From the NCBI GenBank assembly GCA_027451365.1, contig DAIDJN010000005.1, forward strand, positions 1-64,000: DNA of 64,000 nucleotides. The letters are read 5' to 3'. This document shows positions 1 through 49,681 of this stretch, piece by piece. This DNA comes from Phycisphaerales bacterium. GTDB taxonomy: Bacteria; Planctomycetota; Phycisphaerae; WQYP01. How positions within the stretch are numbered: the stretch's first letter is position 1; every line of letters begins with the position of its first letter. A program made the position numbers and the translations under genes. The notes under the pieces were generated by a model. That model was not told the DNA's origin and made no database searches. It saw only the letters and a list, made by a program, of their open reading frames with translations.

Positions 1-126
1 ATTCCAGGGGTCGAGGCCATCCTCGCCTTAAGAGCAGCCTGGAAAAGTCAGGATGCCCGCTGGGAACGGCTGTGGGCCAACCGACCCGCCTACGTTATGA
101 CAAAGACAATAAAAAACGCAGCATAA
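1..126 (+). CDS. C-terminal end of a transposase, ISKra4/ISLre2-like (partial, runs off window start)
   Basis: Frame 1 reads IPGVEAILALRAAWKSQDARWERLWANRPAYVMTKTIKNAA* (TAA 124-126). G-x-EAILALR...W..LW resembles ISKra4/ISLre2-type transposase C-termini. Not in ORF track. Confidence 0.7.
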   Translation: MPGVEAILALRAAWKSQDARWERLWANRPAYVMTKTIKNAA

Positions 127-140
127 ACTGTCACAGGCCC
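1..140 (+). mobile_element. Right end of an insertion sequence inserted into the DUF692 gene
   Basis: Transposase stop is followed by ACTGTCACAGGCCC (127-140). DUF692-like coding sequence on the - strand ends abruptly at 141 (...VWKLY). The other IS end is outside the window. Confidence 0.65.
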
Positions 141-851
141 GTAGAGTTTCCACACCGGGTCGAGTACGGGATGATCGTGGGTATCCAGAATATACTTTTC
201 AAATTTGGAGTGGCCAGCAACATGAATCTGGCCCACCCGGTCAGGGGGAATTCCGTTCAGATAATCAACGGGATTAAAATTATGATTCTTTGAGGACACA
301 TAAATATTGTTCACATCCAGAAGAATGCCGCAATCCGCTCGGTCCACCACTTCAGACAGAAACTCCCACTCCGTCATTTCGGATTGATGAAATTCGGCAT
401 AACTGCTCACATTTTCCACGCATATCGGCACCTCCAGAAAATCCCGCGCCTGGCGAATGCGTTGCGCAGTAATCTTCGCGGCGGCAAAGGTGTATGGCAT
501 CGGCAGCAGATCATGGCTGTAAGTTCCATCCACACTGCCCCAGCACAAATGGTCAGACAGAAATGGCGTTTTTGTACGTTTTACCAGTGACTTAAGCCGA
601 CGCAGGTGCTCGCGATTCAGTTTATCCGCAGAGCCAAAATACATTGCCACGCCATGCTGCACCACCTGGTATTGTTCCATTATCTGGTCCAGAATCTGCA
701 ATGGTCGCCCCGCATCAACCATGTAATTTTCTGAAACAATTTCAAACCAGTCCACCGTCGGCTTTTTTGAAAGGATATGCTGATAATGGGGCACCCGAAG
801 ACCAATACCAACCCCCAAATTAGTAAAGCCGTTATGCGGATTCGCAGGCAT
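90..851 (-). pseudogene. DUF692 / MNIO (multinuclear non-heme iron oxidative enzyme, BufB-like), 3'-truncated by IS; native part 141-851
   Basis: Motifs GIGLRVPHY, WFEIVSENYM, QHGV, SDHLCW, HDLLP, ENVSSY, LLDVNNIYV, QIHVAGH, LDTHD. ATG at 851 with GGAG upstream. After VWKLY the frame runs into IS sequence (GPVTVYAAFFIVFVIT*) and lacks the usual TL(L/I)EWD C-terminal segment. Confidence 0.85.
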
Positions 852-982: not shown

Positions 983-1285
983 TTACTGGCCACCGGTGGT
1001 CATCGGATTCTTGGGAATCATCGTGTTGCAGCCGCCTTTACCCTTGCAGGAATTCTTACCCGCGCAGGAATGGGTGGCAGTTTTGCATCCGCCCTGACCT
1101 TTGCACTTGTTCAACCCCTTGCAATGATGAGCGCCCGCAGCCATGGTTGTGAAGCCAGCCGTCGCCTGCATTCCGGCAATACTTAACGAACCGCTGGATG
1201 CGTGTGCCGCGCCAGCCAGCATACCAACGACCGCAATGCCGGCAAGCGTAGCGGTTGTACCCGCAATGTTTTTATTGATTTTCAT
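983..1285 (-). CDS. BufA2-like (bufferin-type) secreted Cys-rich RiPP/metallophore precursor, 100 aa
   Basis: ATG at 1285 (MKINKN...) with AAGGA RBS. Sec signal ending AAHA. Two tandem C-x-G-x-N-x-CKG-x-GGC units (CKGLNKCKGQGGC, CAGKNSCKGKGGC). Directly upstream of DUF692. Confidence 0.85.
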   Translation of the reverse strand: MKINKNIAGTTATLAGIAVVGMLAGAAHASSGSLSIAGMQATAGFTTMAAGAHHCKGLNKCKGQGGCKTATHSCAGKNSCKGKGGCNTMIPKNPMTTGGQ

Positions 1286-1996
1286 TTCAAGTTCCTTAAA
1301 AAGAGTGTGATTCAACAATTTTCCAGATGTTAACATTAACACCCGAATACATATTCATATCCTGGGCGTTCAGCCCCATATTGAGGCCGGTTTCAACCCA
1401 TTTGATCCATTGATTAACGTCATTTGTTCCGGTTCACTCGTCCTTTCCGGTAATTTTGCCCTGACTGCCTTCGGTCATTGACTGCCCGAATCACCGTCGT
1501 CCGGAACAGTTGACGCATCAGCATTTTTTTGCGTTCATACCTTGCGACTCTGGGGGATACCTGAGCAATCGCCTTAAGGCATTCGGCATAGTGTGAAATG
1601 ATCGTCAGCTCATTGTTCACACCACCCAACGCTCCGGGCTGGAATGGCTCGGCATTACCCAGCCGCGCCCGCCTGGATGGTTAGTCGGAGGCTGTAGTCA
1701 GGTCTTACACATATACCCCGAATAATTTTAGGCAGGCCCCTGCCGTTTGACGCATTTACCATTAATGATCACAATACCGGACAGGCTGGAACCGGAAATT
1801 CGATGAAACGGGAAGGGAAGACCGGTTGACCCACTTTTCATTTCAGAAGAAGCGCTGCCATTTTTGAACTGAGCCTTGTCGGACGGGGCGGCCGCCCCCG
1901 ATGCGCTTTTTCCATTGCGTTATCCGCTAAGGCTGGTAACGCATAGAATCCGCACGCGCCCGCAGATGGATCACACCTCGCAAAAGACCGCCCACA

Positions 1997-2118: not shown

Positions 2119-3378
2119 ATGCTGCACGGCACAACCGAAAACTCCTTATCTTCCCACATAACTCCCGCACGCGATGTTCGCACGATTATCTTCATCGCTT
2201 TCCTTGGACTATTCCTTTCAGGCTATAACAACTTCATGATCGCCATTGCTCTTATCGAACTTCAGCCGCGCTTCGATCTTGGACCGGTGGCATTGGGAAT
2301 GATTCTGGCCGCGACTTTTATGGGCATGCTCGTCGGCGGGGTTACCCTCGGCCATCTGGCCGACAAAATCGGCCGCCGTCCAGCCATGATCATCAACACT
2401 GCGGCCGTCGCAATTTTTGCCCTTTTGTCCGGTATAGTCACCAACCCGATCGAACTGATTGTCATGCGTCTGCTGATAGGCATTGGCATTGGCGCTGGAT
2501 ATCCCATTGGGTCTTCCTTTGTGGCCGATGTCAGCACCGCCAGCGCACGCGGCCGAAATATGACCTTGGCGTTTTGCGGCTGGGGATTTGGCGCCTTGGG
2601 GTGCGGCCTGACGGGGTGGCTGCTGTTAACCATTTGCCCGCCTGTAGTCGGTTGGCGATACATGCTCGCATCGGGGGCGGTTCCGGCACTGGTGGCACTT
2701 GTGGTAATTACAATCCGAAAACTGCCGGAATCCCATTCCTGGAAACATTGCCGCACACTCGAAGCACTTCCATTCCGTGCCCTGTTTCGACCGGGGATCG
2801 GACGCTTAACACTGGCCGCTTTGCTTCCATGGTTTCTGATGGATTTGCCGGTTTACGGCATCGGGCTGCTAATGCCCACTTTGCTTAAGGAACTTCATGT
2901 TGGTGGCTCAAACATTGTGGTATTGAGCACCTGTATATTGTCGCTGTTTACGCTTGTTGGCTTTTTTTTCGCGTACCTTACTATTGACCGCACGGGCCGA
3001 AGGCCGCTTCAGATCATTGGTTTTCTGGGCATGGCGGTTCTTTTTGGCATTTTAGCGATGGAAGGAACCGGCATCCATCTATTTCTGCTGCTGGCATTGT
3101 TCGCGGGAATTCAGGTGTTTGTGAATGCCGGCCCCAACACCACAACATGGATTGTCGCCGCCGAGGTTTTTCCGACCCGTTTGCGAGCCAGAGGCCAAGG
3201 CAGCGCTACCGCGTTTTCCCGAATTGGTGCCGCTTCCGGCGCCTTTTTTCTGCCTGTTATAAATGCCAGGGCGGGCCTGAGCACCGCATTTACGCTGGTT
3301 GCCATTGCCAGCGTTCTTGCGGCTATAATTACTTTGATCTATTTGCCGGAAACGGCACGGCAGGAATTGCCGCATTAA
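2119..3378 (+). CDS. MFS transporter, sugar-porter/Pho84-PHT1-like
   Basis: About 12 hydrophobic segments, motif A (GHLADKIGRR), LIGIGIGAGYP, and NAGPNTTTWIVAAEVFPTRLR resembling Pho84/PHT1 phosphate:H+ symporters. Ends with LPET. Confidence 0.85.
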   Translation: MLHGTTENSLSSHITPARDVRTIIFIAFLGLFLSGYNNFMIAIALIELQPRFDLGPVALGMILAATFMGMLVGGVTLGHLADKIGRRPAMIINTAAVAIFALLSGIVTNPIELIVMRLLIGIGIGAGYPIGSSFVADVSTASARGRNMTLAFCGWGFGALGCGLTGWLLLTICPPVVGWRYMLASGAVPALVALVVITIRKLPESHSWKHCRTLEALPFRALFRPGIGRLTLAALLPWFLMDLPVYGIGLLMPTLLKELHVGGSNIVVLSTCILSLFTLVGFFFAYLTIDRTGRRPLQIIGFLGMAVLFGILAMEGTGIHLFLLLALFAGIQVFVNAGPNTTTWIVAAEVFPTRLRARGQGSATAFSRIGAASGAFFLPVINARAGLSTAFTLVAIASVLAAIITLIYLPETARQELPH

Positions 3379-3398
3379 TTGCAATAAAGGAGCGCATT

Positions 3399-4565
3399 AT
3401 GGCAGATGCCGTCAGCAGTGTGGTTGATTCCGTCCGCAATACCTATTCGGATGCGGCGCGGCAGCGACAGGAAAACCTCTGCTGCCCGGTTGTCTACGAT
3501 CCGAAATACCTGAAGGTCATTCCCAAGGAAGTCCTGGAACGGGATTATGGCTGCGGCGATCCTTCACAATTTCTACGCAACGGTGATACGGTGCTGGATC
3601 TTGGCTCCGGCGGTGGAAAAATCTGCTTTATCGCGGCCCAGGTCGTTGGACCTGCCGGCCGTGTGATTGGCGTGGACATGACCGATGACATGCTGGAACT
3701 CGCTCGCCGCAGCAAAACTGTTGTCGCACAGGAAATCGGTTACGACAACGTCGATTTTCGCAAAGGGATGATTCAGGACCTGCGGCTTGATCTGGCGGAT
3801 ACCGAAACATTCCTGGCCGCCCATCCAATTGCGACCTTGACGGATCTGCACCGGTTTGAAGCGCACCAGCAGCGGCAGCGCCACCAGCGGCCACTGGTGG
3901 CCGATGAATCTGTCGATGTAATTGTATCCAACTGTGTGCTGAATCTGGTTGCGCCAACAGAAAAAGCGCGGATGTTTACGGAAATGTTCCGAGTTTTGCG
4001 TACCGGCGGCCGCGTTGCGATAAGCGATATTGTAAGCGACGAAGATGTCCCTGCCGATATGCGCGGCGATCCGGATCTGTGGTCCGGCTGCGTCAGTGGA
4101 GCCTTGCGCGAGGATGAATTTCTGGAAGCTTTTGAACGCGCCGGCTTTTTTGGAATTCACCTGGCCAAACGGGATTCGACCCCCTGGCGAACCGTGCGAG
4201 GCATTGAATTCCGCAGTGTGACCGTAACCGCCCACAAGGGGAAACAAGGCCCCTGCCTGGAGAAAAATCAGGCGGTTATTTATGCCGGCCCGTGGAAACA
4301 GGTAGTGGATGATGATGGTCATATTCTGCTGCGCGGCAAACGTATGGCCGTATGTGATAAAACGTTTCGCATCATGACCAGTCCGCAGGGGCCTTACGCC
4401 CAAGATATTTGCGGCATTGAACCGGTGACCGAAGTCCCGGCAGACCAAATTAAACCTTTTGCCTGCAAGGGCATCAGCCTGCGCGACGTCCGGCAGACCA
4501 AGGGGCACGACTACACGGCCAGCTCCCAGGCCGTCGCATCTTGTACCACCGACGGGTGCTGTTGA
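3399..4565 (+). CDS. arsM: Arsenite S-adenosylmethionine methyltransferase (ArsM family)
   Basis: ATG 3399 after AAGGAG. Cys motifs [28 protein letters not shown] motif [19 protein letters not shown]-terminal GCC. Followed by arsS. Confidence 0.85.
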
Positions 4566-4620
4566 AAGACAATTGTTATTCCATTCTTACCTGTTATATG
4601 GCCGCCCACCAAGGAACTTC

Positions 4621-5664
4621 ATGATGAACCTGCAAATCTTAAACGCACCGTTGGAAAACCGTTTTGACCAGCGTCTGGCCGCGTCCGGTCAACAGGAGTT
4701 CTCCGGGCAAAGCCTGGGCACTGTACAGGTAAACATTGGTCTGAAGTGCAATTTGGCCTGTCACCACTGCCATGTCGAATCTTCCCCCAAACGCACCGAA
4801 GAAATGAGCTGGGAAACCATGGAATGGGTCCTGGCGGCGGCCCGGCGAGCCAAAGCCCGCACACTGGATATCACCGGCGGTGCCCCCGAAATGAATCCAC
4901 AATTCCGCCGTTTGGTTATCGCCGCCCGCCAACAGGGGCTGGAGGTCATGGTGCGCACCAATTTAACGATTATGCTTGAAGAGGGTTTTACCGATCTGCC
5001 GGAATTCTATGCGGCCCATGGCGTGCATCTGATCGCTTCATTGCCGTGCTATCTGGAAACCAATGTGGACCGCCAACGCGGCAAGCATGTCTACCAGGAA
5101 AGTATTGATGTGATTCTGAAGCTTAATGCTAAAGGCTACGGCATTAACCCGCATTTGCCGCTGGACCTGGTTTATAACCCCGGCGGCCCATCGCTCCCGC
5201 CGGATCAGGCTCGGCTGGAAACCGCCTATCGCGGGGAATTGTCCAAGCGTTTCGGCATTCAGTTCACGAAGCTATATACCATCACCAATCTGCCACTGGG
5301 CCGGTTCCTGCACGATCTTCAAAGACAGGGTTATGCGGAGAAATACCAAGTGCTTCTGGAAAACGCCTTTAACCCGGACACACTGGACGCATTGATGTGC
5401 CGCCATCAACTGCATGTCGGCTGGGATGGAAGTCTTTATGATTGTGATTTTAATTATGCCCTGAAGCTGCCAGCGCAAGGCCGGCCCCACATCCGCGATT
5501 TTGACCCCGCCACATTTCTTGCGCGGCGGATAGCCACCGGCGATCACTGTTTCGGCTGCACGGCGGGCTGCGGGTCTTCCTGCGGCGGAAGCCTGGTGGA
5601 AAATTCCGCCGCCGGTTCCGGCATTGATTTACAAAACAACTGTAAGACCGGGGCCTCCGCATAG
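4621..5664 (+). CDS. arsS: Arsenosugar biosynthesis radical SAM protein ArsS (DUF3641 C-terminus)
   Basis: QVNIGLKCNLACHHCHV (CxxxCxxC), LDITGGAPEMNP, ASLPCY, LDLVYNP, LMCR, YDCDFN, HCFGCTAGCGSSCGG. ATG 4621 after AAGGA. Confidence 0.9.
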   Translation: MMNLQILNAPLENRFDQRLAASGQQEFSGQSLGTVQVNIGLKCNLACHHCHVESSPKRTEEMSWETMEWVLAAARRAKARTLDITGGAPEMNPQFRRLVIAARQQGLEVMVRTNLTIMLEEGFTDLPEFYAAHGVHLIASLPCYLETNVDRQRGKHVYQESIDVILKLNAKGYGINPHLPLDLVYNPGGPSLPPDQARLETAYRGELSKRFGIQFTKLYTITNLPLGRFLHDLQRQGYAEKYQVLLENAFNPDTLDALMCRHQLHVGWDGSLYDCDFNYALKLPAQGRPHIRDFDPATFLARRIATGDHCFGCTAGCGSSCGGSLVENSAAGSGIDLQNNCKTGASA

Positions 5665-5712
5665 ACTAATCGGGAGTGACGTGCGGAAGGAAAGTGTTGT
5701 TTCCGCGCACAA

Positions 5713-7350
5713 ATGAACTCGTTTGGAAATGCGGCAATGTCAACATCGAAAAAAGCATCGGGCGTAGCCCAAATCGTTCAAGTTCTTGCAATGCTGGGCA
5801 TTATCGCGGCTCTGGTTATTATTTCCCGGATCCTGCCTGTGGGGCAGGGGATCGCACATCTGCATGGCTGGCTGAATCACCTTGGACTGGTCGGTATTGG
5901 TGCCTACATCCTGATTTACATCGTCGCCACAGTTTTACTGGTTCCCGGTGCGGCCATCACGCTTCTGGCCGGCGTGTTGTATGGCCCGCTCTGGGGTACA
6001 CTGATTGTCTCCATCGGGGCCACACTTGGCGCGTCGGCCGCCTTTTTGCTGGGCCGTTTCGCATTCCGTGAAGGCGTGGAACGGGCGACCGGGAAAAATC
6101 CGAAATTCAAGGCAATTGACGCGGCCATTGGTACCAACGGCTGGAAAATTGTTGCGTTATTGCGGCTTTCGCCGGTGGTGCCATTTAACCTAAGCAACTA
6201 CTTTTTCGGCTTAACCGGCATCGGCTTTGGACCTTATGTGCTGGCAAGCTGGATATGTATGTTGCCGGGCACACTTCTTTATGTTTACCTGGGCTATGCC
6301 GCCAGTCAGGCCGCGGGCGGCGGAGGGCAGTCCGTCGGCTGGCTGCATTGGACGCTGGTCTGCGTCGGACTGGCGATCATCCTGCTGGTTACCATTTATA
6401 TCACCCGTCTGGCCAAACGCGCGTTGGTCAATGCATCTGGAGTTGCTGAAATGCCGCAAACAGATCAGTCCGCACAACCCGTCATAACCGGCTGGACAAA
6501 GCGCACCACGGTACTGGCGGCAATTGCGGTCCTGATGCTTAGCGTTGCCGCCTGCACCTGGATCAAACGGTCCGCACTAGTCGGCCTGTTCGGCCCGCCA
6601 CCGGTGAAACTCGTTAATAAATTCCACAACAGACCGGGCGGTCCGGTGTTCAGCAATCAGGAATTTAACACAGTGGTTTCCACGTACGTGCACCCCGGCG
6701 GATGGGTCAATTATGTTGGCCTGGCTGCGCATCCGCAAAAACTGAATGCCTATATCGCCTCCCTGGCCAACGCACCTTTTGCGCAACTTGGTCGCAATCA
6801 AAAGCTGGCCCTGCTGATTAACGCATACAACGCCTGCACCCTGCGGCTGATTCTGGATTATTATCCGAGCATCAAATCCATCATGGACATACCATCCGAT
6901 CAGCGCTGGGCGGCGATGCGATGGAACATCGGTGGAAAACGATATAGCTTGGAAAGCGTGGAACTTATGCTGCGTACGGATTTCGCCGATCCGCGCATTC
7001 ACTTTGCCATTGTGTGCGCTTCCATCGGCTGCCCTCCGCTTCTCAATGAAGCCTACGAAGGCAACACAGTTGAAGCACAACTGCAAAGCCAGGCGGAATA
7101 TGTCAACAACAATGCCCGCTGGTTGCGTTTCAGCAAATCGGGCAAAACCGTTCATCTGACGAAACTTTACGACTGGTACGGCGGAGATTTCACCCAGGCG
7201 GCAGGATCCGTGCTTAAATTCGCGGCACGCTACAATAAACAGCTTGCCGCAGACATTGCCGCGGATAAACCGCCCCAAATTGTATTTAAATCTTACAACT
7301 GGAATTTGAACAGCATACAAAATGAACCTGCATCTGGAATACAACGATGA
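5713..7350 (+). CDS. TVP38/TMEM64 (DedA superfamily) membrane domain fused to DUF547 domain
   Basis: N-half has LLVPGAAITLLAGVLYG and LLRLSPVVPFNLSNY. C-half has VNYVGL, LINAYNA, DPRIHFAIVCASIGCPPL, LYDWYGGDF, YNWNLN. Start may be 5737. Confidence 0.85.
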   Translation: MNSFGNAAMSTSKKASGVAQIVQVLAMLGIIAALVIISRILPVGQGIAHLHGWLNHLGLVGIGAYILIYIVATVLLVPGAAITLLAGVLYGPLWGTLIVSIGATLGASAAFLLGRFAFREGVERATGKNPKFKAIDAAIGTNGWKIVALLRLSPVVPFNLSNYFFGLTGIGFGPYVLASWICMLPGTLLYVYLGYAASQAAGGGGQSVGWLHWTLVCVGLAIILLVTIYITRLAKRALVNASGVAEMPQTDQSAQPVITGWTKRTTVLAAIAVLMLSVAACTWIKRSALVGLFGPPPVKLVNKFHNRPGGPVFSNQEFNTVVSTYVHPGGWVNYVGLAAHPQKLNAYIASLANAPFAQLGRNQKLALLINAYNACTLRLILDYYPSIKSIMDIPSDQRWAAMRWNIGGKRYSLESVELMLRTDFADPRIHFAIVCASIGCPPLLNEAYEGNTVEAQLQSQAEYVNNNARWLRFSKSGKTVHLTKLYDWYGGDFTQAAGSVLKFAARYNKQLAADIAADKPPQIVFKSYNWNLNSIQNEPASGIQR

Positions 7351-8891
7351 CCGATTTCCCGTCACTGAACCTTCCCGCCCTTCAGCCGCTGGATTCATAC
7401 AATCAGGCTTTGGCCGCCCATGTGCATCCGGCGGATTGGGTGAATCCAAACCCCCGGCCGCAATACGATCTGGTGGTCATCGGCGGAGGCACCGCCGGTC
7501 TTGTGACGGCCGCCGGTGCGGCGGGTCTCGGAGCGAGCGTGGCGCTGATCGAACGGGAGTTACTCGGTGGCGACTGCCTGAATGTCGGATGCGTGCCGTC
7601 CAAGGCTTTGATCCGTTCGGCTGCGGCCTGTGCGGATATCCGTTCTGTCGCGGAATTTGGGGTAAAATTAAGCGGCGATCCAATCACTGATTTTCCCGCC
7701 GTCATGCAACGGCTTCGCCGTCTGCGATCCGGCATCAGCGAACATGATTCGGCCGCCAGATTCCGTTCGCTTGGCGTGGATGTATTCATCGGTTCGGGCC
7801 GCTTCACCGGACGCCAGACCATCGAAGTCAATTCCAGCAGTCTGCGATTCAGGCGAGCGGTAATCGCCAGCGGTGCCCGCGCGGCGGTGCCCCAAATACC
7901 GGGTCTGGAGGCCACCGGATTTCTCACCAACGAAACCATCTTTTCCCTGACACATCTGCCACCGCGACTGGCGGTCATCGGAACCGGCCCCATCGGCTGC
8001 GAGCTTTCCCAGGCGTTTGCCCGCCTGGGATCAAAAGTGCAACTGCTGGGGGGCGGCCATCTGTTTCTGGCCGCCGAAGATCGCCAAGCCGCCGACCGTG
8101 TGGAAGCTGCACTGGTTAATGATGGCGTGGAGATTATTTCCGATCAGTCCATTCTGCGAATCGCGCCCACCGCGGACAACCGAAAAGTGATTTATTTTTC
8201 AGGTCCGGGCAGTGTATCAAGCATCACCGTGGACACCATTCTGGTGGCCACAGGGCGCACACCCAATTGCCAAGGGCTTAATCTGGAGGCAGCGGGAGTG
8301 GCCTGGGAGTCGCGCCAAGGCGTACTGGTGGATGATTTTCTCCGCACCAAAAACAAAATGATATACGCCGCTGGAGATGTCTGTTCCGCCTTCAAATTTA
8401 CCCATGCCGCGGACGCCATGGCCCGTATTGTTTTGCGCAATGCCCTTTTCTTTGGACGCGACCGGGTAAGCAATCTTATAATTCCGCACTGCACCTATAC
8501 CGATCCGGAAGTCGCCGGCGTCGGACGGTCCGAGTCGCAGCTAAAAAAAGCCGGAATCCGCTTCAAGACCATTCGGGTGGACATGAAATCAATGGACCGC
8601 GCGATTCTGGAAGGGCAGACCGACGGCTTTTTAGAAGTACATCTGGCTGCAGGCAAGGACCATATCCTTGGGGCCACACTCGTCGCCCGGCACGCCGGCG
8701 AAATGATATCCGAGTTGGCCCTGGCTATGACCGCGGGACTGGGCCTTTCAGCCATTGCCAAAACCATTCACCCCTATCCCACGCAGTCGGAAATATTCAA
8801 ACGGGCTGGCGACGCCCTCAGCCGCACGCGTCTAACCCCGCGAACCGCCAGAATACTCCAGGCACTGATCAAAATCCGCCGCTGGATGTAA
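7347..8891 (+). CDS. MerA-like pyridine nucleotide-disulfide oxidoreductase (no HMA domain, no C-terminal Cys-Cys)
   Basis: VIGGGTAG, GGDCLNVGCVPSKAL redox disulfide, GTGPIGCE, YAAGDV, HPYPT. ATGA overlap with the upstream gene. Confidence 0.85.
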   Translation: MTDFPSLNLPALQPLDSYNQALAAHVHPADWVNPNPRPQYDLVVIGGGTAGLVTAAGAAGLGASVALIERELLGGDCLNVGCVPSKALIRSAAACADIRSVAEFGVKLSGDPITDFPAVMQRLRRLRSGISEHDSAARFRSLGVDVFIGSGRFTGRQTIEVNSSSLRFRRAVIASGARAAVPQIPGLEATGFLTNETIFSLTHLPPRLAVIGTGPIGCELSQAFARLGSKVQLLGGGHLFLAAEDRQAADRVEAALVNDGVEIISDQSILRIAPTADNRKVIYFSGPGSVSSITVDTILVATGRTPNCQGLNLEAAGVAWESRQGVLVDDFLRTKNKMIYAAGDVCSAFKFTHAADAMARIVLRNALFFGRDRVSNLIIPHCTYTDPEVAGVGRSESQLKKAGIRFKTIRVDMKSMDRAILEGQTDGFLEVHLAAGKDHILGATLVARHAGEMISELALAMTAGLGLSAIAKTIHPYPTQSEIFKRAGDALSRTRLTPRTARILQALIKIRRWM

Positions 8892-9417: not shown

Positions 9418-10648
9418 GTGCTTTGTCAACGCAAAATATTAGGATATGGCAGTAGCCCGCACGGTAGCGGGTGAGTTTGTAGGTAATAGAGCAAGGACGC
9501 TCATATGCAAAAGAAATATATCGTGCGGTTGTCGGATGAGGAACGTCGCGAGTTGTCAGAGGTGGTTCGCAAGTTCAAAGGGACGAATGAAAAGGTGCGG
9601 CGTGCCCAGATTCTTCTGAAAGCTGACGCGGATGGGCCTTGTTGGACAGATCGGAAAATCGCCGAGGCCTTCGGCTGTCGCACCAAGACAGTGGAGAATG
9701 TTCGGGAACATTTGGTGGAGCGGGGTTTCAAGCAGACACTTAACGGTGTCAAGCGGGCGACCAGTCCGACACCGAAGTTGCTTAATGGTCAGCGGGAAGC
9801 GCAGATTATAGCGGCCCGTCTGGGGCCACCGCCTCCCGGATATGCCAACTGGACCCTGCGTTTACTGGCCCGCCGCGTGGTGGAATTAGAGATCGTGGAA
9901 ACCATCAGCCACGAGACGGTGCGTCAGACATTAAAAAAAATGGCATGACGAATCGGAAGATCGAATATTGGGTCATTCCTCCGGAGGCCGATGCTGAGTT
10001 TACCGCCAGCATGGAGGAAGTGCTCGCCACCTACGCCCAACCGTATGACGCGGCCAAGCCGGTCTTATGTATGGATGAACAGCCGGTGCAACTTTTGAAG
10101 GAGACCCGCCAGCCGATTCCGGCAACCCGGACGCATGCGCGTCGGGTTGATTATGAGTACGAGCGGGCCGGCACCGGCACGATCTTCATGTTTACCGAGC
10201 CGCTGGCGGGCTGGCGAGAAGTCCAGGTTCGGGCCACCAAGACCAAGGCTGATTGGGCCCAGGAGATGGCGCGGTTATTGGAGGGGCGGTATGCCGATTG
10301 TCCGCGTGTGGTGCTGGTATGCGACAACCTCAATACGCATACCAAGGGCGCTTTTTACGAGGTATTCGATCCTGAGCGTGCCCGGCAACTGGTAAGCCGT
10401 TTGGAGTTTCGACATACCCCCAAGCACGGTAGTTGGCTGAATATCGCGGAAAATGAACTCAGTTCTCTGACACGACAATGTGTTGCCGGAAGGCGGTTCG
10501 GTGACCTTGAGACACTACGCCACGAAACGGCTGCGTGGTCGTCCGATGTCAATGCAAAACAAAAAGGCGTCCAATGGCACATGCAGATAGCAGACGCCCG
10601 CAGAAAACTCATCAGCGTTTACCCTAAAATTATGACGTGACAAAGCAC
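9418..10648 (+). mobile_element. IS630-family insertion sequence, complete
   Basis: Terminal inverted repeats GTGCTTTGTCA (9418-9428) and TGACAAAGCAC (10638-10648). TA duplication at 9416-9417 and 10649-10650. Reconstructed target CTAG. Confidence 0.95.
9505..10640 (+). CDS. IS630 transposase in two overlapping ORFs (9505-9948 HTH; 9945-10640 DDE), probable -1 frameshift
   Basis: RRAQILLKAD, WTLRLLA, ISHETVRQTLKK, then A8 tract at 9933-9940. Second ORF has CMDEQP, VCDNLNTH, TPKHGSWLNIAE. Confidence 0.92.
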
Positions 10649-17347: not shown

Positions 17348-18160
17348 ATGGCTATCGCCGTGTCGGCATGTATTATTTGCAAGAATGAGGCGGACAAAAT
17401 CCGCGTCTGTCTGGATTCATTGAACTGGTGCGCGGATATTGTCGTGGTTGATTCCGGTTCGACCGATGCGACAGTTTTGATCGCCCGGCAGCACGCCACC
17501 AGGCCGCGGGTAATTCACCATGACTGGCAGGGCTATAGCCGCCAGCGGGAATTTGCCGTTCAGGCCTGCGCAAATCCGTGGGTTCTGGCATTGGATGCCG
17601 ACGAAGAATGTTCACCCAAACTGGCTCGTGATATACAGAATATATCCGAGGCGGCGGCTGCCCAAATTGCCATATTTGAAATGCCGCGAAAAAATTACCT
17701 CGCGGGCAGGTTTGTGCGATGTTGGTCACCGGATTATCAATCGCGACTGATACATCGAGATCGCGTGGAATGGGACATCAGTGCTCTGCCGGAAAAACGC
17801 CAGCCACGGCCCGAGTTTATCTCCACCAAATTGGGCGGAGCAATTCTGCACAACCGCCTGACACCCTATCGGAATACTGATTTTAATGACGGACCCGTAA
17901 TGGCCGAGCGTGCCGCCCTGCTGGCCACTCAAATGGCCGCGTGCGGCAAACGTGCCACACTTTTTAATATGCTTACACGGCCATTGTTTACTTTTCTGAA
18001 ATACTATGTGCTGCGCGGCGGGTTCTTGCAGGGACGCTTCGGTCTTGCAATTGCCTATAAAACAACCGTAGGCGTGGTGCTAAAATATAGTCTGCTGTAC
18101 GCACGGCAGAATCTGGCTTCGGAAACCGACCGCAGCCCAGCCAACCCATCCGAAAAATAG
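17348..18160 (+). CDS. Glycosyltransferase family 2 (WaaE/KdtX-like)
   Basis: IICKNEA, VVDSGSTD, WVLALDADE, FLKYYVLRGGFLQG. Confidence 0.9.
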   Translation: MAIAVSACIICKNEADKIRVCLDSLNWCADIVVVDSGSTDATVLIARQHATRPRVIHHDWQGYSRQREFAVQACANPWVLALDADEECSPKLARDIQNISEAAAAQIAIFEMPRKNYLAGRFVRCWSPDYQSRLIHRDRVEWDISALPEKRQPRPEFISTKLGGAILHNRLTPYRNTDFNDGPVMAERAALLATQMAACGKRATLFNMLTRPLFTFLKYYVLRGGFLQGRFGLAIAYKTTVGVVLKYSLLYARQNLASETDRSPANPSEK

Positions 18161-44113: not shown

Positions 44114-47100
44114 GTGACATCAACAGCGATTTTGTCGTCAAAATTGATCCCCCGTCGGGGCAGGATGCTGGTATTTCTGGCGGCCGCCATGAGTCTGACC
44201 GTGGGCAGATCGACTTGCCTGCAAGCCGACACTGTGAACCTCGTACAGGTAACGGGACAGAATGGCACATTAACTTCCGACGCTCAGGATGCCCAAGCCA
44301 ATGCGACTTCCAGCGCACCGAGTAATACAGCTATTGCCAAAGCTGGAAGTGGCGGTATTTTTCCACAAAATACCGATGCGACTAATGGCGAGATAAATGG
44401 GGGTACAGCCAATGCAGTTGCCGAAGACTCAAATTTTCAGGCTATCAACAGCTCAGCTATTAATTCCATTGCACAAGCGGTTGGCGGAAACGGTGGGAGC
44501 GCCATGTATCTTTCCGGTAGCCAAATCGTTGGAGTGCCAGGTACGGGCGGAGTTGCTGAAGCCAGCGCACTTGCGAACAATGCGGTATTAAATGGAAATT
44601 CCACAGCCGATATTTTCGCCCACGGGGGAACGGGCGGCTATGTCACATATACGGATTCGTCCGGAACGATTCGTTCTGAAGGCAACAGCGGCGGTAACGC
44701 CTACATATCCGGCGGCTCTTACGCCGTTGGCAATGGAACCGCAAATTTGGAGGCCATTGCCAATGGGGGTAACGGTGGAACTGGCCAGAGCGGATTGAAT
44801 GCCGGAATGGGCGGTACCGCACAGCTTGGCACACTTTTTGGCCAATCTGACAAGGGAAACGTCAACGTTTCAGCTACAGCCACAGGGGGAAATGGAAGCA
44901 CCGGGAGCAGCGAAATTCTCAGCAATGCCGTGGCTGGCCAGACAAATGGCAACCTATCTCTATCCCAAACTGCGGTTGGTGGCTCATCGTATCGCTCCGG
45001 AGTCGCCGGAGGCAATGCACAAAGCAGTTTGAAAGTAAACGACAGTCCATTGGCATCTGGCTCACCTATTTTAACACCATCTAATTTAACACTCACCGTT
45101 GTAGCAACAGGTGGAAATGGCGGGCCACCAAGCCCCGGGGGGACTGTTGGGGGCGCAGGCGGCAGTGGTCAGGTCAGTGCGGTCGGCATCCTGCTTGGAC
45201 GAAGAAATGTCACGATCAACGCCACGGCCACGGGCGGCAATGGATTACTCGGTGGCGGTATAGCGCTGAGCACAAATGGCGCAGGAGCCGGTGGGATCGC
45301 TGAGCTTGGCATGCTTTTTGGCCGATCTGACATGGGAAATGTCAGTGTTTCCGGCACGGCCATTGGAGGCAATGGAAATAGCGGTGCCGCAGAGAATCTC
45401 TCCAATGCGGTCAATGGCCAGACGGCGGGAAACCTTTCCCTTTCCCAGACAGCTGTGGGTGGAAATTCACTGGATGCGGGTGCCAGCGGCGGCTATGCCA
45501 GCAGTTTGCTGAATGAGGATTATTCAACAGGTACTATAATCGTCGCCCCGTCCAGTCTTTCACTGACCGTTGCGGCTACAGGTGGCAATGGTGGCCCCGT
45601 CGGCAACGGGAATGCTGGAGTTGTCAGCGCCACTGGAATACTTACCGGTGCCGGGAATGTAACCATTAACGCCAATGCCACGGGTGGCAATGGCGGCGTC
45701 GACATTAATGCAGGCATATCAAATGGATATATGTTTGGCGCCGGTGGCGCGGGCACATTGGGCAGTATTCTTGGCCAGTCGGGAACCGGCAATGTATGCG
45801 TTTCCGGAATCGCCACTGGCGGCGGTGGAAATGGTGGTATTCAGGAGATTCTTTCTGATTCGGTCAATGGCCAGACGGCGGGAAACCTTTCCCTTTCCCA
45901 AACCGCCATTGGTGGTACGGCAGTGGCTGCTGGCACCAGCGGCGGATATGCCAGCAGTTCGCTGATGAAGGATTATTCACAGGGCAATACGATTTCGCCC
46001 GCCAATTTATCCCTGTCGGCCATCGCCACCGGAGGCAACGGTGGTGCGGGTTTTGCAAGCGGACTGGCAGCTATTCCAGGTGGCAATGGCGCCAATGGTC
46101 GGGCGAGTGCCGAGGGAATTCTGGCCGGCGGCGGAAATGTGAGCATTAACGCGATTGCCACCGGCGGTAATGGGGGAGCCGGTGTAAATCCGGTTATATC
46201 CAACCGCGGCATTGGAGACGCTACGTTACCGGGTCAGGCGGGCACTGGTTCACTTGGCAAAATTTTGGGTGAATCAGGTACAGGAAATGTCAGCGTCTCC
46301 GGCACTGAAATGGACGGAACGGGCGCAGTTGGCGCGAGTGTTGAATTAAATAATGCAGTCGAGGGTCTAACTACAGGAGGCCTTTCTCTTTCCCAGACAG
46401 CAGTGGGCGGAAATTCACTGGATGCCGGCGCCAGTGGAGGATATGCCAGCAGCAGATTGAATTCGGTTTATTTTGCCAGCCAGACCAATGCTCCATCGAA
46501 TATTTCACTGGCCGTGTCTGCTACCGGCGGCAATGGCGGTGCCAGATTTGCATATGGGGGAAGTGCCACAGTCGCCGGCGCGGGGGCCAATGGGAATGCC
46601 AGTGCCGAAGGAATTTTAGCAGGCAGTGGCAATGTCACGGTCAGCGCCACGGCAATTGGAGGTAACGGAGGCGCAGAAACCTTTGGGACCGCCTTGGGAA
46701 CTTACGGAGTTGGGGGAATTGGCCAATTTGGTACATCACAAACTTATGGCCAATCCGATACCGGAAATGTGACGGTATCGGTAACCGGCATTGGGGGCAA
46801 TGGACAACATGGTGCTGATGAAAATCTAAATAATGTTGCTGCAGGCCAGACTACGGGCAATCTTTCTCTTTCTCAAACGGCCATCGGTGGCAATGGTGAA
46901 GGCTCCGGCGGGAATGGTGGAATTGCCAACAGCGCGTTAAATGAAGGTTACAATAATTCCGGCGAAATTAATCCGTCTGGACTTACCCTGAATGTGGATG
47001 CCACCGGCGGAAATGGGTCAGCGGCATATTTTGACACCGCGTCACCAGCGGACAGCACGCTGGCTGGGGATGGCGGCAACAGCACCGCCGTGGCAACAGG

Positions 47101-49681
47101 TATTCTTGCCGGCAGCGGAAACGTAAACATTACGGCTGTTTCCACCGGGGGTAATGGTGGAGCAGGTTATTTTGTCCCGAGTTCCAGCCTAACAACGAAT
47201 TACAGCGCCGTCGCCGGTACGGGCGGTACGGGCGGACTTCACATTTCTGGCCAATCGGGAACAGGCAATGTCAGCGTATCTGGAACGGCAATTGCCGGGA
47301 ACGGCCTTACCGGAATTAACGAATCAATGCAGGATGAAGCGTCAGGAAGCACAATGGGGAACCTTTCCCTTTCCCAAACCGCCATCGGCGGGTCTGCATT
47401 AGGGGCAAAGAACAATGGGGGCATAGCATCCAGTATTTTAAATGAGAATTATACGGTCGCACCAATTATTCCGTTAAGCCTCAATTTGACACTGGCAGCT
47501 ATCGGCGGCAATGGCGGGCCGACGAATGGTCTGGCGGCTGGTGGAGCGGGCGGCGCCGGAACTATCAATTCAAATGCTGTCATGACCGGCAATAGAGCTG
47601 TCACCATTACGGCGACCGCAACCGGCGGCAATGGCGGGGCGGGTCTGACCAGTACCGGGACAGACTTTGGTGCAGGTGGCATGGGTCAACTGGAACAGAT
47701 TTATGGCCAATCGGACACGGGCAATGTGACGGTGTCCGCCACCGGAATAGGCGGCAATGGAGAGAATGGGTTCAATGAAGTTCTGGGCAACAACACAATC
47801 GGTCAAACTGCGGGAAATCTGGCCCTTTCCCAGTCGGCAATCGGTGGAAATGCTTTGGGAACTGCCGGCAGCGGCGGATATGCACGAAGCGATCTATTTC
47901 AAAATGATTCGATCGGAGGAATAGTGGCACCGTCAAACCTTTCACTGACCGTTGCGGCAACAGGTGGCAATGGCGGCCCGGCCGCTGGAACCACGGGTGG
48001 CGGCAATGGTGCCAATGGATCGGTGTCCGCCGTTGGGGAGCTTTCCGGGGGCGGAAATGTCACGATCAATGCGACGGCCACCGGTGGTAATGGCGGCACA
48101 GGAATAAGCGGAGCGGGTTATGGAAATGGCGGCACCGATGAATTTGGACAAATTAATGGCCAATCCGGCACGGGAAATGTCAGTGTTTCCGGCACGTTTA
48201 TTGGTGGGAACGGCCAAAATGGTGCGGCGGAACAATTCAGCAATGTCGTATCGGGCCAAACCGCAGGCGACCTGACACTTTCCCAGAGGGCTGTTGGCGG
48301 ATCCGCCCTGGGCATGACCGGCAATGGCGGCGACGCAAGCAGCCAACTAAGTCTGAAGACCAGCGCCGCAAATCTGGCGGTTTTCACCACTGCCACTGCC
48401 GGTGCCGCCGGGCAAGTCAACAATACCAATCAGCCGTCCGGACTGGCAGGCATTGCCAGCGCTTGGAGCGATGCGAGCAACCTTACGGGCTCTGTTACCG
48501 CCAACGCGGTGGCTTTCGGTGGTCAGGGTAGCAGCACTCTTACCATGATGGCTCCGTCAGCGGGCGGCGCGTCCCAGGCCACAGCAGATGCGGTTACACC
48601 AGGCGATTTTGCCGCCAGTGCCGTGGCCAAATCCACGGGCGGTCTTGCCGGAACCAACGCCCAGCTAAACAGTGGATACTTCACGTTGCCAGTCTTCGCC
48701 ACGGCAAATGCCACCTCGGGCGGCGGACCGGTGGTGGCCACCGCGCAGGCGTTGAATCCATCCGGTGGAAACAGTACAGCAACTTCCGATGGAACCTCCA
48801 GCGGCGGTTCGGTTTCCAGTAACGCGACTGCCACGGGCACCAATTTTGGGATGGCGTTGGCTGATGCTACCGGTTCCGGAAATTCCGGCTCCGCAGCAGC
48901 TGCCAGTCAATTGATGTTCGGCGCGACAAATTCAAATAACACTGTCAATTTTGTCGAATCTGTACAGACCGCGGCCACATCCGCTGTAATTACCGGCAAT
49001 ACTGTAAAGACCGAAGCATTTACCGACTTAGGCGGAGACCCACGATCCGAAAGCAATGCTTCCGGACTTCAGGCCGCCGCCTACGCCACGGTCAACCCCA
49101 TAAGCACGGCTGTACAGAGTATTCTTAATGCCAGCCCAGGTCTTTCCGCTAATTTTAATATTGGTCAGCAGGGTACACATCCAATAGCCAACGTCGGCGG
49201 AATTTTTACCTTGGCGTTGCATGCCGGCGGAGCTTCCGCCAGTCCCCAGACCTATTCAGCCAGCGCCACGGAATTACTAAATCGCGCCGCCTTGGGATCA
49301 TCGATTCAGGATATGCTGATTGGTGCCGGCGCGATTCAATTTGCCGGTACGGGCACGATTCAATTCACCATAACAGACAACGGCGTAACGGCTGTCAACC
49401 AGCAGTTTGATTCGCTTGCCGCGGCGGCGAATTATTTATCTGGCCGCACTTTTGACTTAGGATCGTTCAGTGGCCTTTCAAACAGTTCCGGAATGTCGTC
49501 ACTTGATGTTACTTTGCAAATGACCACCGCGGATTCCGCGGCCATGTTTGATCCGCAGGTTCTGACAGCCAACGGCACACTTGGAGCCGGGGCGGTCCCT
49601 GAGCCGGCCGAACTGGCGCTGCTGGCAGCAGGGATTGCGCCACTTCTACTGATTCGGCGGCGCAGATTCGGCCGCGAATAA
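44114..49681 (+). CDS. Giant Gly/Asn/Ser/Ala-rich repetitive PEP-CTERM surface protein, 1855 aa
   Basis: GGGAG RBS before GTG; signal-like N-terminus; long internal repeats; C-terminus VPEPAELALLAAGIAPLLLIRRRRFGRE. Confidence 0.9.
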   Translation: MTSTAILSSKLIPRRGRMLVFLAAAMSLTVGRSTCLQADTVNLVQVTGQNGTLTSDAQDAQANATSSAPSNTAIAKAGSGGIFPQNTDATNGEINGGTANAVAEDSNFQAINSSAINSIAQAVGGNGGSAMYLSGSQIVGVPGTGGVAEASALANNAVLNGNSTADIFAHGGTGGYVTYTDSSGTIRSEGNSGGNAYISGGSYAVGNGTANLEAIANGGNGGTGQSGLNAGMGGTAQLGTLFGQSDKGNVNVSATATGGNGSTGSSEILSNAVAGQTNGNLSLSQTAVGGSSYRSGVAGGNAQSSLKVNDSPLASGSPILTPSNLTLTVVATGGNGGPPSPGGTVGGAGGSGQVSAVGILLGRRNVTINATATGGNGLLGGGIALSTNGAGAGGIAELGMLFGRSDMGNVSVSGTAIGGNGNSGAAENLSNAVNGQTAGNLSLSQTAVGGNSLDAGASGGYASSLLNEDYSTGTIIVAPSSLSLTVAATGGNGGPVGNGNAGVVSATGILTGAGNVTINANATGGNGGVDINAGISNGYMFGAGGAGTLGSILGQSGTGNVCVSGIATGGGGNGGIQEILSDSVNGQTAGNLSLSQTAIGGTAVAAGTSGGYASSSLMKDYSQGNTISPANLSLSAIATGGNGGAGFASGLAAIPGGNGANGRASAEGILAGGGNVSINAIATGGNGGAGVNPVISNRGIGDATLPGQAGTGSLGKILGESGTGNVSVSGTEMDGTGAVGASVELNNAVEGLTTGGLSLSQTAVGGNSLDAGASGGYASSRLNSVYFASQTNAPSNISLAVSATGGNGGARFAYGGSATVAGAGANGNASAEGILAGSGNVTVSATAIGGNGGAETFGTALGTYGVGGIGQFGTSQTYGQSDTGNVTVSVTGIGGNGQHGADENLNNVAAGQTTGNLSLSQTAIGGNGEGSGGNGGIANSALNEGYNNSGEINPSGLTLNVDATGGNGSAAYFDTASPADSTLAGDGGNSTAVATGILAGSGNVNITAVSTGGNGGAGYFVPSSSLTTNYSAVAGTGGTGGLHISGQSGTGNVSVSGTAIAGNGLTGINESMQDEASGSTMGNLSLSQTAIGGSALGAKNNGGIASSILNENYTVAPIIPLSLNLTLAAIGGNGGPTNGLAAGGAGGAGTINSNAVMTGNRAVTITATATGGNGGAGLTSTGTDFGAGGMGQLEQIYGQSDTGNVTVSATGIGGNGENGFNEVLGNNTIGQTAGNLALSQSAIGGNALGTAGSGGYARSDLFQNDSIGGIVAPSNLSLTVAATGGNGGPAAGTTGGGNGANGSVSAVGELSGGGNVTINATATGGNGGTGISGAGYGNGGTDEFGQINGQSGTGNVSVSGTFIGGNGQNGAAEQFSNVVSGQTAGDLTLSQRAVGGSALGMTGNGGDASSQLSLKTSAANLAVFTTATAGAAGQVNNTNQPSGLAGIASAWSDASNLTGSVTANAVAFGGQGSSTLTMMAPSAGGASQATADAVTPGDFAASAVAKSTGGLAGTNAQLNSGYFTLPVFATANATSGGGPVVATAQALNPSGGNSTATSDGTSSGGSVSSNATATGTNFGMALADATGSGNSGSAAAASQLMFGATNSNNTVNFVESVQTAATSAVITGNTVKTEAFTDLGGDPRSESNASGLQAAAYATVNPISTAVQSILNASPGLSANFNIGQQGTHPIANVGGIFTLALHAGGASASPQTYSASATELLNRAALGSSIQDMLIGAGAIQFAGTGTIQFTITDNGVTAVNQQFDSLAAAANYLSGRTFDLGSFSGLSNSSGMSSLDVTLQMTTADSAAMFDPQVLTANGTLGAGAVPEPAELALLAAGIAPLLLIRRRRFGRE
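44800..48350 (+). repeat. Eight diverged ~450-500 bp coding repeats within the giant PEP-CTERM gene
   Basis: Anchor L(S/A/T)LSQ(T/S/R)A(V/I)GG occurs eight times, near 44950, 45430, 45885, 46380, 46860, 47360, 47820 and 48270, with GQS(G/D)xGNV and ATGGNGG motifs. Boundaries approximate. Confidence 0.85.

Follow-up and report, generated by a model that had tools for sequence, protein, structure and literature searches.

We analysed a five-gene operon (positions 2119-8891, plus strand) in a 64,000-nucleotide stretch of the genome of a Phycisphaerales bacterium (assembly GCA_027451365.1, contig DAIDJN010000005.1, positions 1 to 64,000; below, the window). The operon is most probably (about 0.65) the front half of a widespread ArsS-type cluster that likely makes dimethylarsinoyl-adenosine (DDMAA), and four transferase genes at three other sites of the genome would finish this product to an arsenoriboside or arsenolipid. 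We see it as a lineage-specific version of a cluster that is already known, with the back half scattered in the genome.

The genes encode a transporter of the major facilitator superfamily (MFS; 2119-3378, 419 aa, Pfam MFS), a putative long-form ArsM (3399-4565, 388 aa, Pfam S-adenosylmethionine (SAM) methyltransferase), ArsS (4621-5664, 347 aa, Pfam radical SAM and DUF3641), a DedA-DUF547 protein (5713-7350, 545 aa, Pfam VTT/DedA and DUF547, with the ATG at 5737 as a possible start) and a reductase (7347-8891, 514 aa, Pfam class I pyridine nucleotide-disulfide oxidoreductase). The ORF coordinates confirmed what an earlier inspection of the DNA (the sequence-only reading) had listed, namely five co-oriented genes with gaps of 20, 55 and 48 nt and an ATGA overlap between the DedA-DUF547 and reductase genes. 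That reading had also proposed a neighbourhood analysis. The whole five-gene order, with all genes complete, recurs in 4 of 74 related loci and in the metagenome locus L171, so the arrangement is not due to chance. The 74 loci overlap partly with the 41 related genomes used below, and counts from the two sets are not additive.

The arsenic core and the scattered transferases

ArsS scored 418.3 against the TIGR04167 cut-off of 300, and the C-terminal DUF3641 domain is present. Its radical-SAM motif CX3CX2C (C43/C47/C50) was found in 74/74 loci. The closest named relatives (66-79 % identity) come mostly from Planctomycetota/Phycisphaerae metagenome-assembled genomes, and the earlier attribution to a probable planctomycete holds. 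Judged by its residues, the operon methyltransferase is a long-form As(III) SAM methyltransferase ArsM. The cysteines C28, C52, C179 and C231 are present in 20/20 homologues, with the same spacing as C30/54/181/233 of BgArsM (PMC8552651; equal spacing, no direct alignment), the C-terminal tail reads C-x4-CC with the terminal CC in 20/20, and the PDB matches include ArsM structures. The best NCBIfam match was the arsinothricin ArsM model (NF040538), ahead of the cyanobacterial arsenosugar model (NF038099). ArsM methylates arsenic, and SsArsM with SsArsS starts arsenosugar synthesis (PMC8552651); ArsS adenosylates DMAs(III) to DDMAA (PMC13598754), and adenine is removed at a later step (bioRxiv 2026.04.29.721666). 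The retained catalytic cysteines of ArsM and the TIGR04167 score of ArsS are consistent with methylation followed by adenosylation as the likely core, as previously suggested.

Short ArsMs are near-universal among the related genomes (34/41), and the one on contig C51 of the host genome (G000, 93 % complete) is over its cut-off. The long ArsM had no match in 7 of the 12 family genomes that carry both arsS and the reductase, which weakens the idea that its C-x4-CC tail serves the reductase in trans. Several unusual ArsM-like and ArsS-like genes were seen on the way. A third ArsM-like methyltransferase of the host (G000:C66:7830-8819) scored 99.6/263. At L153 (G034:C135:4600-6700) an ArsM-like domain and a divergent radical SAM domain share one 1109-aa frame, adjoined by DedA, GT2 and DUF2064 genes. 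Long open frames end in ArsS at L073:8915-10951 and L079:7092-9242, the latter apparently an ArsM-ArsS fusion, and two ArsM matches with one in-frame TGA (G008:C14:3427-4257 and G039:C4:50263-51111) are possibly selenocysteine forms.

Genome-wide searches gave no match to TIGR04282, Acr3, the LMW-type ArsC or the ArsR family in the window, in agreement with the absences already remarked on, and the sole TIGR04283 match there (17372-17683, 40 bits of 182) is a generic GT2. The full-genome profile search that the sequence-only reading had recommended did find a pair of overlapping TIGR04283-like and TIGR04282-like genes at C42:43468-45347, but both score under the cut-offs; these two families are the sole NCBIfam matches of the two proteins. 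An arsR-arsC-acr3-arsM cluster lies at C51:183-3330, with acr3, arsR and arsM over their cut-offs and arsC under (142/174). In relatives, four transferase genes come after the reductase gene (GT87-like, GT2, DUF2064 and TIGR04283-type GT2), sometimes as one fusion of ~1140 aa, and the host orthologues of the other two lie at C19:69614-70975 (GT87-like) and C63:45352-46080 (GT2). With transferases on C42, C19 and C63 and further ars genes on C51, the module is not self-contained as had been claimed. The different end product suggested for it is unsupported, given that the transferases lie elsewhere at the gene level, an outcome which the sequence-only reading had itself counted against the idea.

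Phylogenies place the scattered copies with arsS-linked ones. The DUF2064 protein of C42 belongs to a clade of 10 rows with 100/99 support, five of them on arsS loci (careful tree, 32 DUF2064 rows), and the GT2a, GT2b and GT87-like copies group with arsS-linked copies with supports of 100, 93 and 98 (quick trees, long-branch warnings). The four host transferases retain 26/32, 19/20, 59/61 and 40/42 conserved columns and by this measure appear intact. The co-occurrence points in the same direction. Among the 41 related genomes, arsS was over cut-off in 14, and every one of these also matched TIGR04282, in 10 cases on the contig that carries arsS, against 5/27 of the others. Orthologues of the C19 and C63 genes occur in the same 15 of 41 genomes, 13 of which are arsS-positive, and in 11 of 25 family genomes arsS, TIGR04282, the C19/C63 orthologues and the reductase are all missing. 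In 201 genomes of the phylum, 54 have arsS, 94 have TIGR04282 and 51 have both; in these 51 the two lie within 20 kb in 21 cases, far apart on one contig in 2 and on different contigs in 28.

Several observations weigh against our proposal. TIGR04282 is present in 43/147 arsS-negative genomes of the phylum and may have other jobs. Many of the phylum assemblies are in fragments, and closely related genomes do not count as independent cases; likewise the 14 positive family genomes represent 7 genera, maybe one subclade, so their co-occurrence is not independent either. The C42 pair is under both cut-offs (TIGR04283 112.5/182, TIGR04282 117.3/134), its DUF2064 protein has lost 6/32 conserved columns, and the C19 protein has no Pfam match of its own, its GT87-like label being taken from orthologues. 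The operon ArsM passes none of the three main ArsM cut-offs (NF040538 356/500, NF008823 214/263, NF038099 137/400), and two genomes (G031 and G038) have arsS without the reductase.

Transporter, DedA-DUF547 protein and reductase

The best PDB match of the transporter was PiPT, both by sequence and by fold (model pLDDT 90.7), and its score of 115.7 does not reach the cut-off of the phosphate:H+ symporter model TIGR00887 (610.3). In PiPT, the proton relay consists of D45, D48 and D149, and the pocket of Y150, F174, Q177, W320, D324, Y328, N431 and K459 (PMC6761603; bioRxiv 2025.08.04.668567). The site table gives S34, N37 and G127 at the relay positions, and six of the eight pocket residues are identical (the equivalents of Y150, F174, W320, D324, Y328 and N431), with K459 replaced by Arg and Q177 by Trp. 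The 40 closest homologues (at least 48 % identity) form one clade (FastTree, support 100; 117 rows, 36 full-length clade members), with named members from Phycisphaerae, Acidimicrobiales, Dormibacteraeota and Steroidobacteraceae. At each of the three relay sites an acid is found in 0/38 non-gap rows of this clade, against 78/78, 78/78 and 79/79 in the next 80 homologues (outgroup), where both pocket changes are also seen (K to R in 36/80, Q to W in 31/80). Since the relay acids are lost throughout the clade while the pocket is mostly retained, the transporter is likely an uncoupled carrier, an offshoot of the phosphate:H+ symporters with most of the oxyanion site and without proton coupling. 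It is possible that it is instead non-functional or differently energised. Asn at the D48 position occurs in the uniporter GLUT1 (N29) and not in XylE (D27) (PMC6761603). The previous label Pho84-like was therefore dropped, as the lost relay aspartates and the TIGR00887 score do not fit a Pho84-type proton symporter.

Regarding the substrate, the gene of a 49 % identical clade member at L173 overlaps that of a TmpA-like dioxygenase, and next comes a gene for a PhnZ/TmpB-like HD oxygenase (L173:1632-4701), both oxygenases being under their HMM cut-offs. This single locus, on a side branch of the clade, hints at C-P/C-As substrates, and the operon transporter may carry C-As/C-P oxyanions, e.g. 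methylated arsenic. Another clade member, at L172, lies beside a mer operon in a locus without any ars gene. For the gene context outside planctomycetes, a metagenome search that gave seven loci, four of them outgroup, yielded only L172 and L173. Plasmids gave no match, nor did 401 genomes of a second phylum, in a search run without a positive control. In planctomycetes the transporter gene goes together with the long arsM: wherever it was complete or partly preserved, arsM or a remnant of it was next door (9/9 loci). The transporter is an accessory member of the operon, because it is absent or decayed in several relatives: it occurs in 4/41 related genomes (one copy partial), was not found in the sister genome of the host and is decayed at L056 and L110. 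In or near its slot at other arsS loci we found PiT (5/74), a PstS-like ABC system (2/74) or another MFS with a metallophosphoesterase (7/74), which favours an uptake role. PstS is present in the host genome, in which PiT was not found.

A paralogous transporter of the host (G000:C59:13308-14723, 35 %) retains all three relay aspartates, has Gly at the N431 site and, by inspection, comes after a gene for a large phosphoesterase-like secreted protein. The nearest outgroup transporters (P0041-P0114) are largely archaeal MFS-PhoU_div (PF01865) fusions with relay aspartates retained and, in many, Q177 changed to Trp. In L045:1240-3605, L049:4284-6209 and L055:2948-4861 a different MFS and a calcineurin-like metallophosphoesterase lie directly 5′ of arsS, with the metallophosphoesterase in one open frame with arsS in L049 and L055. 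Such a front end might serve to salvage arsenosugar phosphates; its metallophosphoesterase is present in 9/41 related genomes and was not found in the host.

The DedA-DUF547 protein has a clear DedA/VTT domain (PF09335 103.7, cut-off 33.9), joined through its last transmembrane helix to DUF547. Hydropathy and the signal-like N-termini of stand-alone DUF547 proteins suggest that DUF547 is likely exported or periplasmic. Its C-x4-C is invariant in the alignment (32/32). The DedA domain has no conserved cysteine and is thus not an electron relay. By motif inspection, its conserved motif at 75-79 has no acidic residue. DedAs of the COG0398 subfamily lack acidic residues at the first re-entrant tip. 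They have been proposed to act as scramblases, and their most frequent fusions are to a reductase of the type found here (PMC10127716). No result supports DedA as an exporter of a soluble product, the export step formerly proposed. As to the function of DUF547, there was no PDB sequence match, the Atlas scores were all at most 0.76, and the model (pLDDT 94.8) had no Foldseek match and a best VIA Z of 5.5. A single ORF of DedA, DUF547 and reductase in L112 was rejected as a wrong-frame artefact.

The reductase passes NF004991 (PRK06370.1-3) with 742.9 against 620 and fails the MerA model TIGR02053 (375.3, cut-off 454.45). It has the redox pair C77-C82, the His-Glu motif HPYPT-x-x-E and a basic C-terminal helix, and no C-terminal cysteine was present in any of the 26 homologue tails listed. 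MerA carries a C-terminal Cys-Cys pair. By these features the protein is a PRK06370-type FAD disulfide reductase and not MerA, and its former label as MerA-like was dropped; a true merA lies on contig C3. Glu at position 235 suggests NADH; it is present in 21/26 homologues and replaced by Gly in the window copy.

Proposed pathway and alternatives

In the pathway that we favour, an arsenic oxyanion would enter via Pst or via the MFS, predicted to be proton-uncoupled, and arsenate would be reduced by the ArsC of C51. The DedA-anchored flavoprotein probably maintains methyl-arsenic or enzyme thiols in the reduced state, which is the weakest step. ArsM would then produce DMAs(III) from As(III) by methylation, and ArsS would attach the 5′-deoxyadenosyl group, as published for homologues. 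Adenine would be removed before the transferase steps; nucleoside phosphorylase-family genes are present in the host, none tied to the cluster. Finally, DUF2064, the TIGR04283-like protein, a polyprenol-phosphate-type GT2, the DedA scramblase and the GT87-like transferase might, going by their domain types, pass the sugar to a lipid or envelope acceptor. We infer all steps after DDMAA, the uptake by the MFS and the job of the reductase. A more elaborate version seems to us unlikely: the MFS would be an offshoot for C-bonded oxyanions, with phosphonates as substrates in one branch and methylarsenate/dimethylarsinate here, so that methylated arsenic is taken up on purpose, reduced by the DedA-anchored flavoprotein and adenosylated by ArsS, after which arsenoribose on a lipid carrier is flipped by DedA and transferred to the envelope by the GT87-like protein.

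The operon might also act alone, stopping at DDMAA or free dimethylarsinoyl-ribose and exporting it, while the transferases serve unrelated glycosylation. The four transferase genes are indeed unlinked in the host, the C42 pair is unlinked to arsS in the sister genome too, and the low HMM scores of that pair and the frequency of TIGR04282 without arsS would fit. However, the unlinked layout is common (30/51, including the 2 with both genes distant from each other on a single contig), genomes with arsS and no TIGR04282 are rare (3/54) and the scattered copies look intact. Moreover, each of nine further genomes with an arsS locus, eight of these loci close to the operon, has a match to TIGR04282 (5/5) or TIGR04283 (5/5; a further one is L047, a locus of the same type). 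We therefore regard this alternative as improbable.

Two other explanations appear very unlikely. ArsS might adenosylate As(III) or MAs(III) first, leaving methylation of the bulky organoarsenical to the long ArsM, in the way that BgArsM methylates AST-OH(III) (bioRxiv 2024.02.01.577332), with the short C51 ArsM doing the simple methylation. The preference of the operon ArsM for the arsinothricin model (356 bits) over the cyanobacterial arsenosugar model (137 bits) and the second ArsM over cut-off agree with this order, but the former score is still under the NF040538 cut-off, ArsS is reported to act on DMAs(III) (PMC13598754), and a long ArsM missing from 7/12 family arsS genomes is not needed after ArsS. 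The operon could also be a mosaic within an island of metal-resistance genes, in which the DedA-DUF547-reductase part and the MFS handle general metal/thiol stress and are merely co-regulated with arsM-arsS. The merR-merA-merT-ECF and bufferin genes on the adjoining contig and the mer-linked locus L172 speak for it, as do DedA-oxidoreductase fusions, which are common and tied to aerobic metabolism rather than arsenic (PMC10127716). Against it, 12 of the 13 related genomes (of 41) with the reductase family are arsS-positive, only Synechococcus elongatus among 14 control genomes passes both the ArsS and reductase models, and DedA, DUF547 and reductase occur together in 22/74 arsS loci.

The host copy is not special, as ArsS-type clusters are common in the phylum (arsS over cut-off in 54/201 genomes). 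Because the pathway is frequently divided between separate sites, judging the end product from a single stretch of DNA is misleading. For the steps after DDMAA, to which our literature searches linked no gene, the four transferases that accompany arsS even where they are scattered now provide named candidates. The distinctive part of the operon is the MFS, whose clade, with relay acids lost and the oxyanion pocket retained, offers a concrete candidate carrier for organoarsenicals or phosphonates.

Genomic setting and comparison with known systems

The window starts with the end of a multicopy insertion sequence (1..141) that splits the bufferin maturase gene bufB, whose N-terminal part follows at 142..851 (minus strand; NF050167 310.9/310 on ORF 93-851), and a BufA2-like precursor gene lies at 983..1288 (minus strand; NF050166 42.7, under the cut-off of 60). 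The remainder of bufB and a 9-bp duplication were found at the end of contig C3 (G000:C3:28705-35009), which shows that C3 joins the operon contig C5. By inspection and BLAST, not HMM, C3 carries merR, merA with a C-terminal Cys pair, a merT-like gene, an ECF/anti-sigma pair and a rhodanese gene, and relatives have similar mer/ECF neighbours. On the 3′ side of the operon there is an IS630-family transposase in two ORFs (9505..10640, plus strand; NF033545). Given the mer, ECF, bufferin and insertion-sequence neighbours, the operon therefore sits in an Hg/Cu/As island. No Rfam element was found, promoter/terminator counts were no higher than in shuffled sequence, and the upstream region had no clear motif in common with 10 relatives. 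Further along the window (44114-49681), an 1855-aa ORF has no Pfam match at E 1e-12.

In the literature we found no study of an ArsS-type cluster in planctomycetes or of this MFS clade, in line with the earlier remark that the chemistry is uncharacterised in the lineage; the primary ArsS papers and Cheng et al. 2021 may already show such neighbourhoods. In Synechocystis, the slr0305 gene follows arsM-arsS. The part of PMC3836016 available to us lists Slr0305 as a DedA and mentions no arsenic link, and the sole bacterial arsenosugar makers named in the accessible text of PMC12159101 are cyanobacteria.

The operon resembles the Synechocystis PCC 6803 arsM-arsS system and the NCBIfam arsenosugar families (TIGR04167, NF038099, TIGR04282, TIGR04283) in its adjacent arsM and arsS, in ArsS over cut-off and in the TIGR04282/04283-like pair of the genome. 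It differs in the long-form ArsM, closer to the arsinothricin model, in the unlinked transferases under cut-off, in the extra MFS and in the planctomycete host. Its order of transporter, ArsM and radical SAM enzyme and its similar ArsM recall the Burkholderia arsQML arsinothricin operon, which has ArsL in place of ArsS and a GntP-type ArsQ in place of the MFS; further partners set the operon studied here apart. Among solved structures the MFS is nearest to PiPT, of the PiPT/Pho84/PHT1 group, and shares most pocket residues, but has Ser, Asn and Gly for D45, D48 and D149, Trp for Q177 and Arg for K459. MerA provides the closest PDB sequences for the reductase, and the two have in common the FAD/NAD(P)H fold and a redox C-x4-C; unlike MerA, the operon enzyme lacks the C-terminal Cys pair and the NmerA domain and has the HPYPT-x-x-E motif. 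Finally, the VTT/DedA domain next to a PF07992 and PF02852 reductase is reminiscent of the COG0398 DedA-oxidoreductase fusions described by Todor et al. 2023 (PMC10127716). In the operon, by contrast, the fusion partner of DedA is DUF547, and the link to the reductase is one of translational coupling only.

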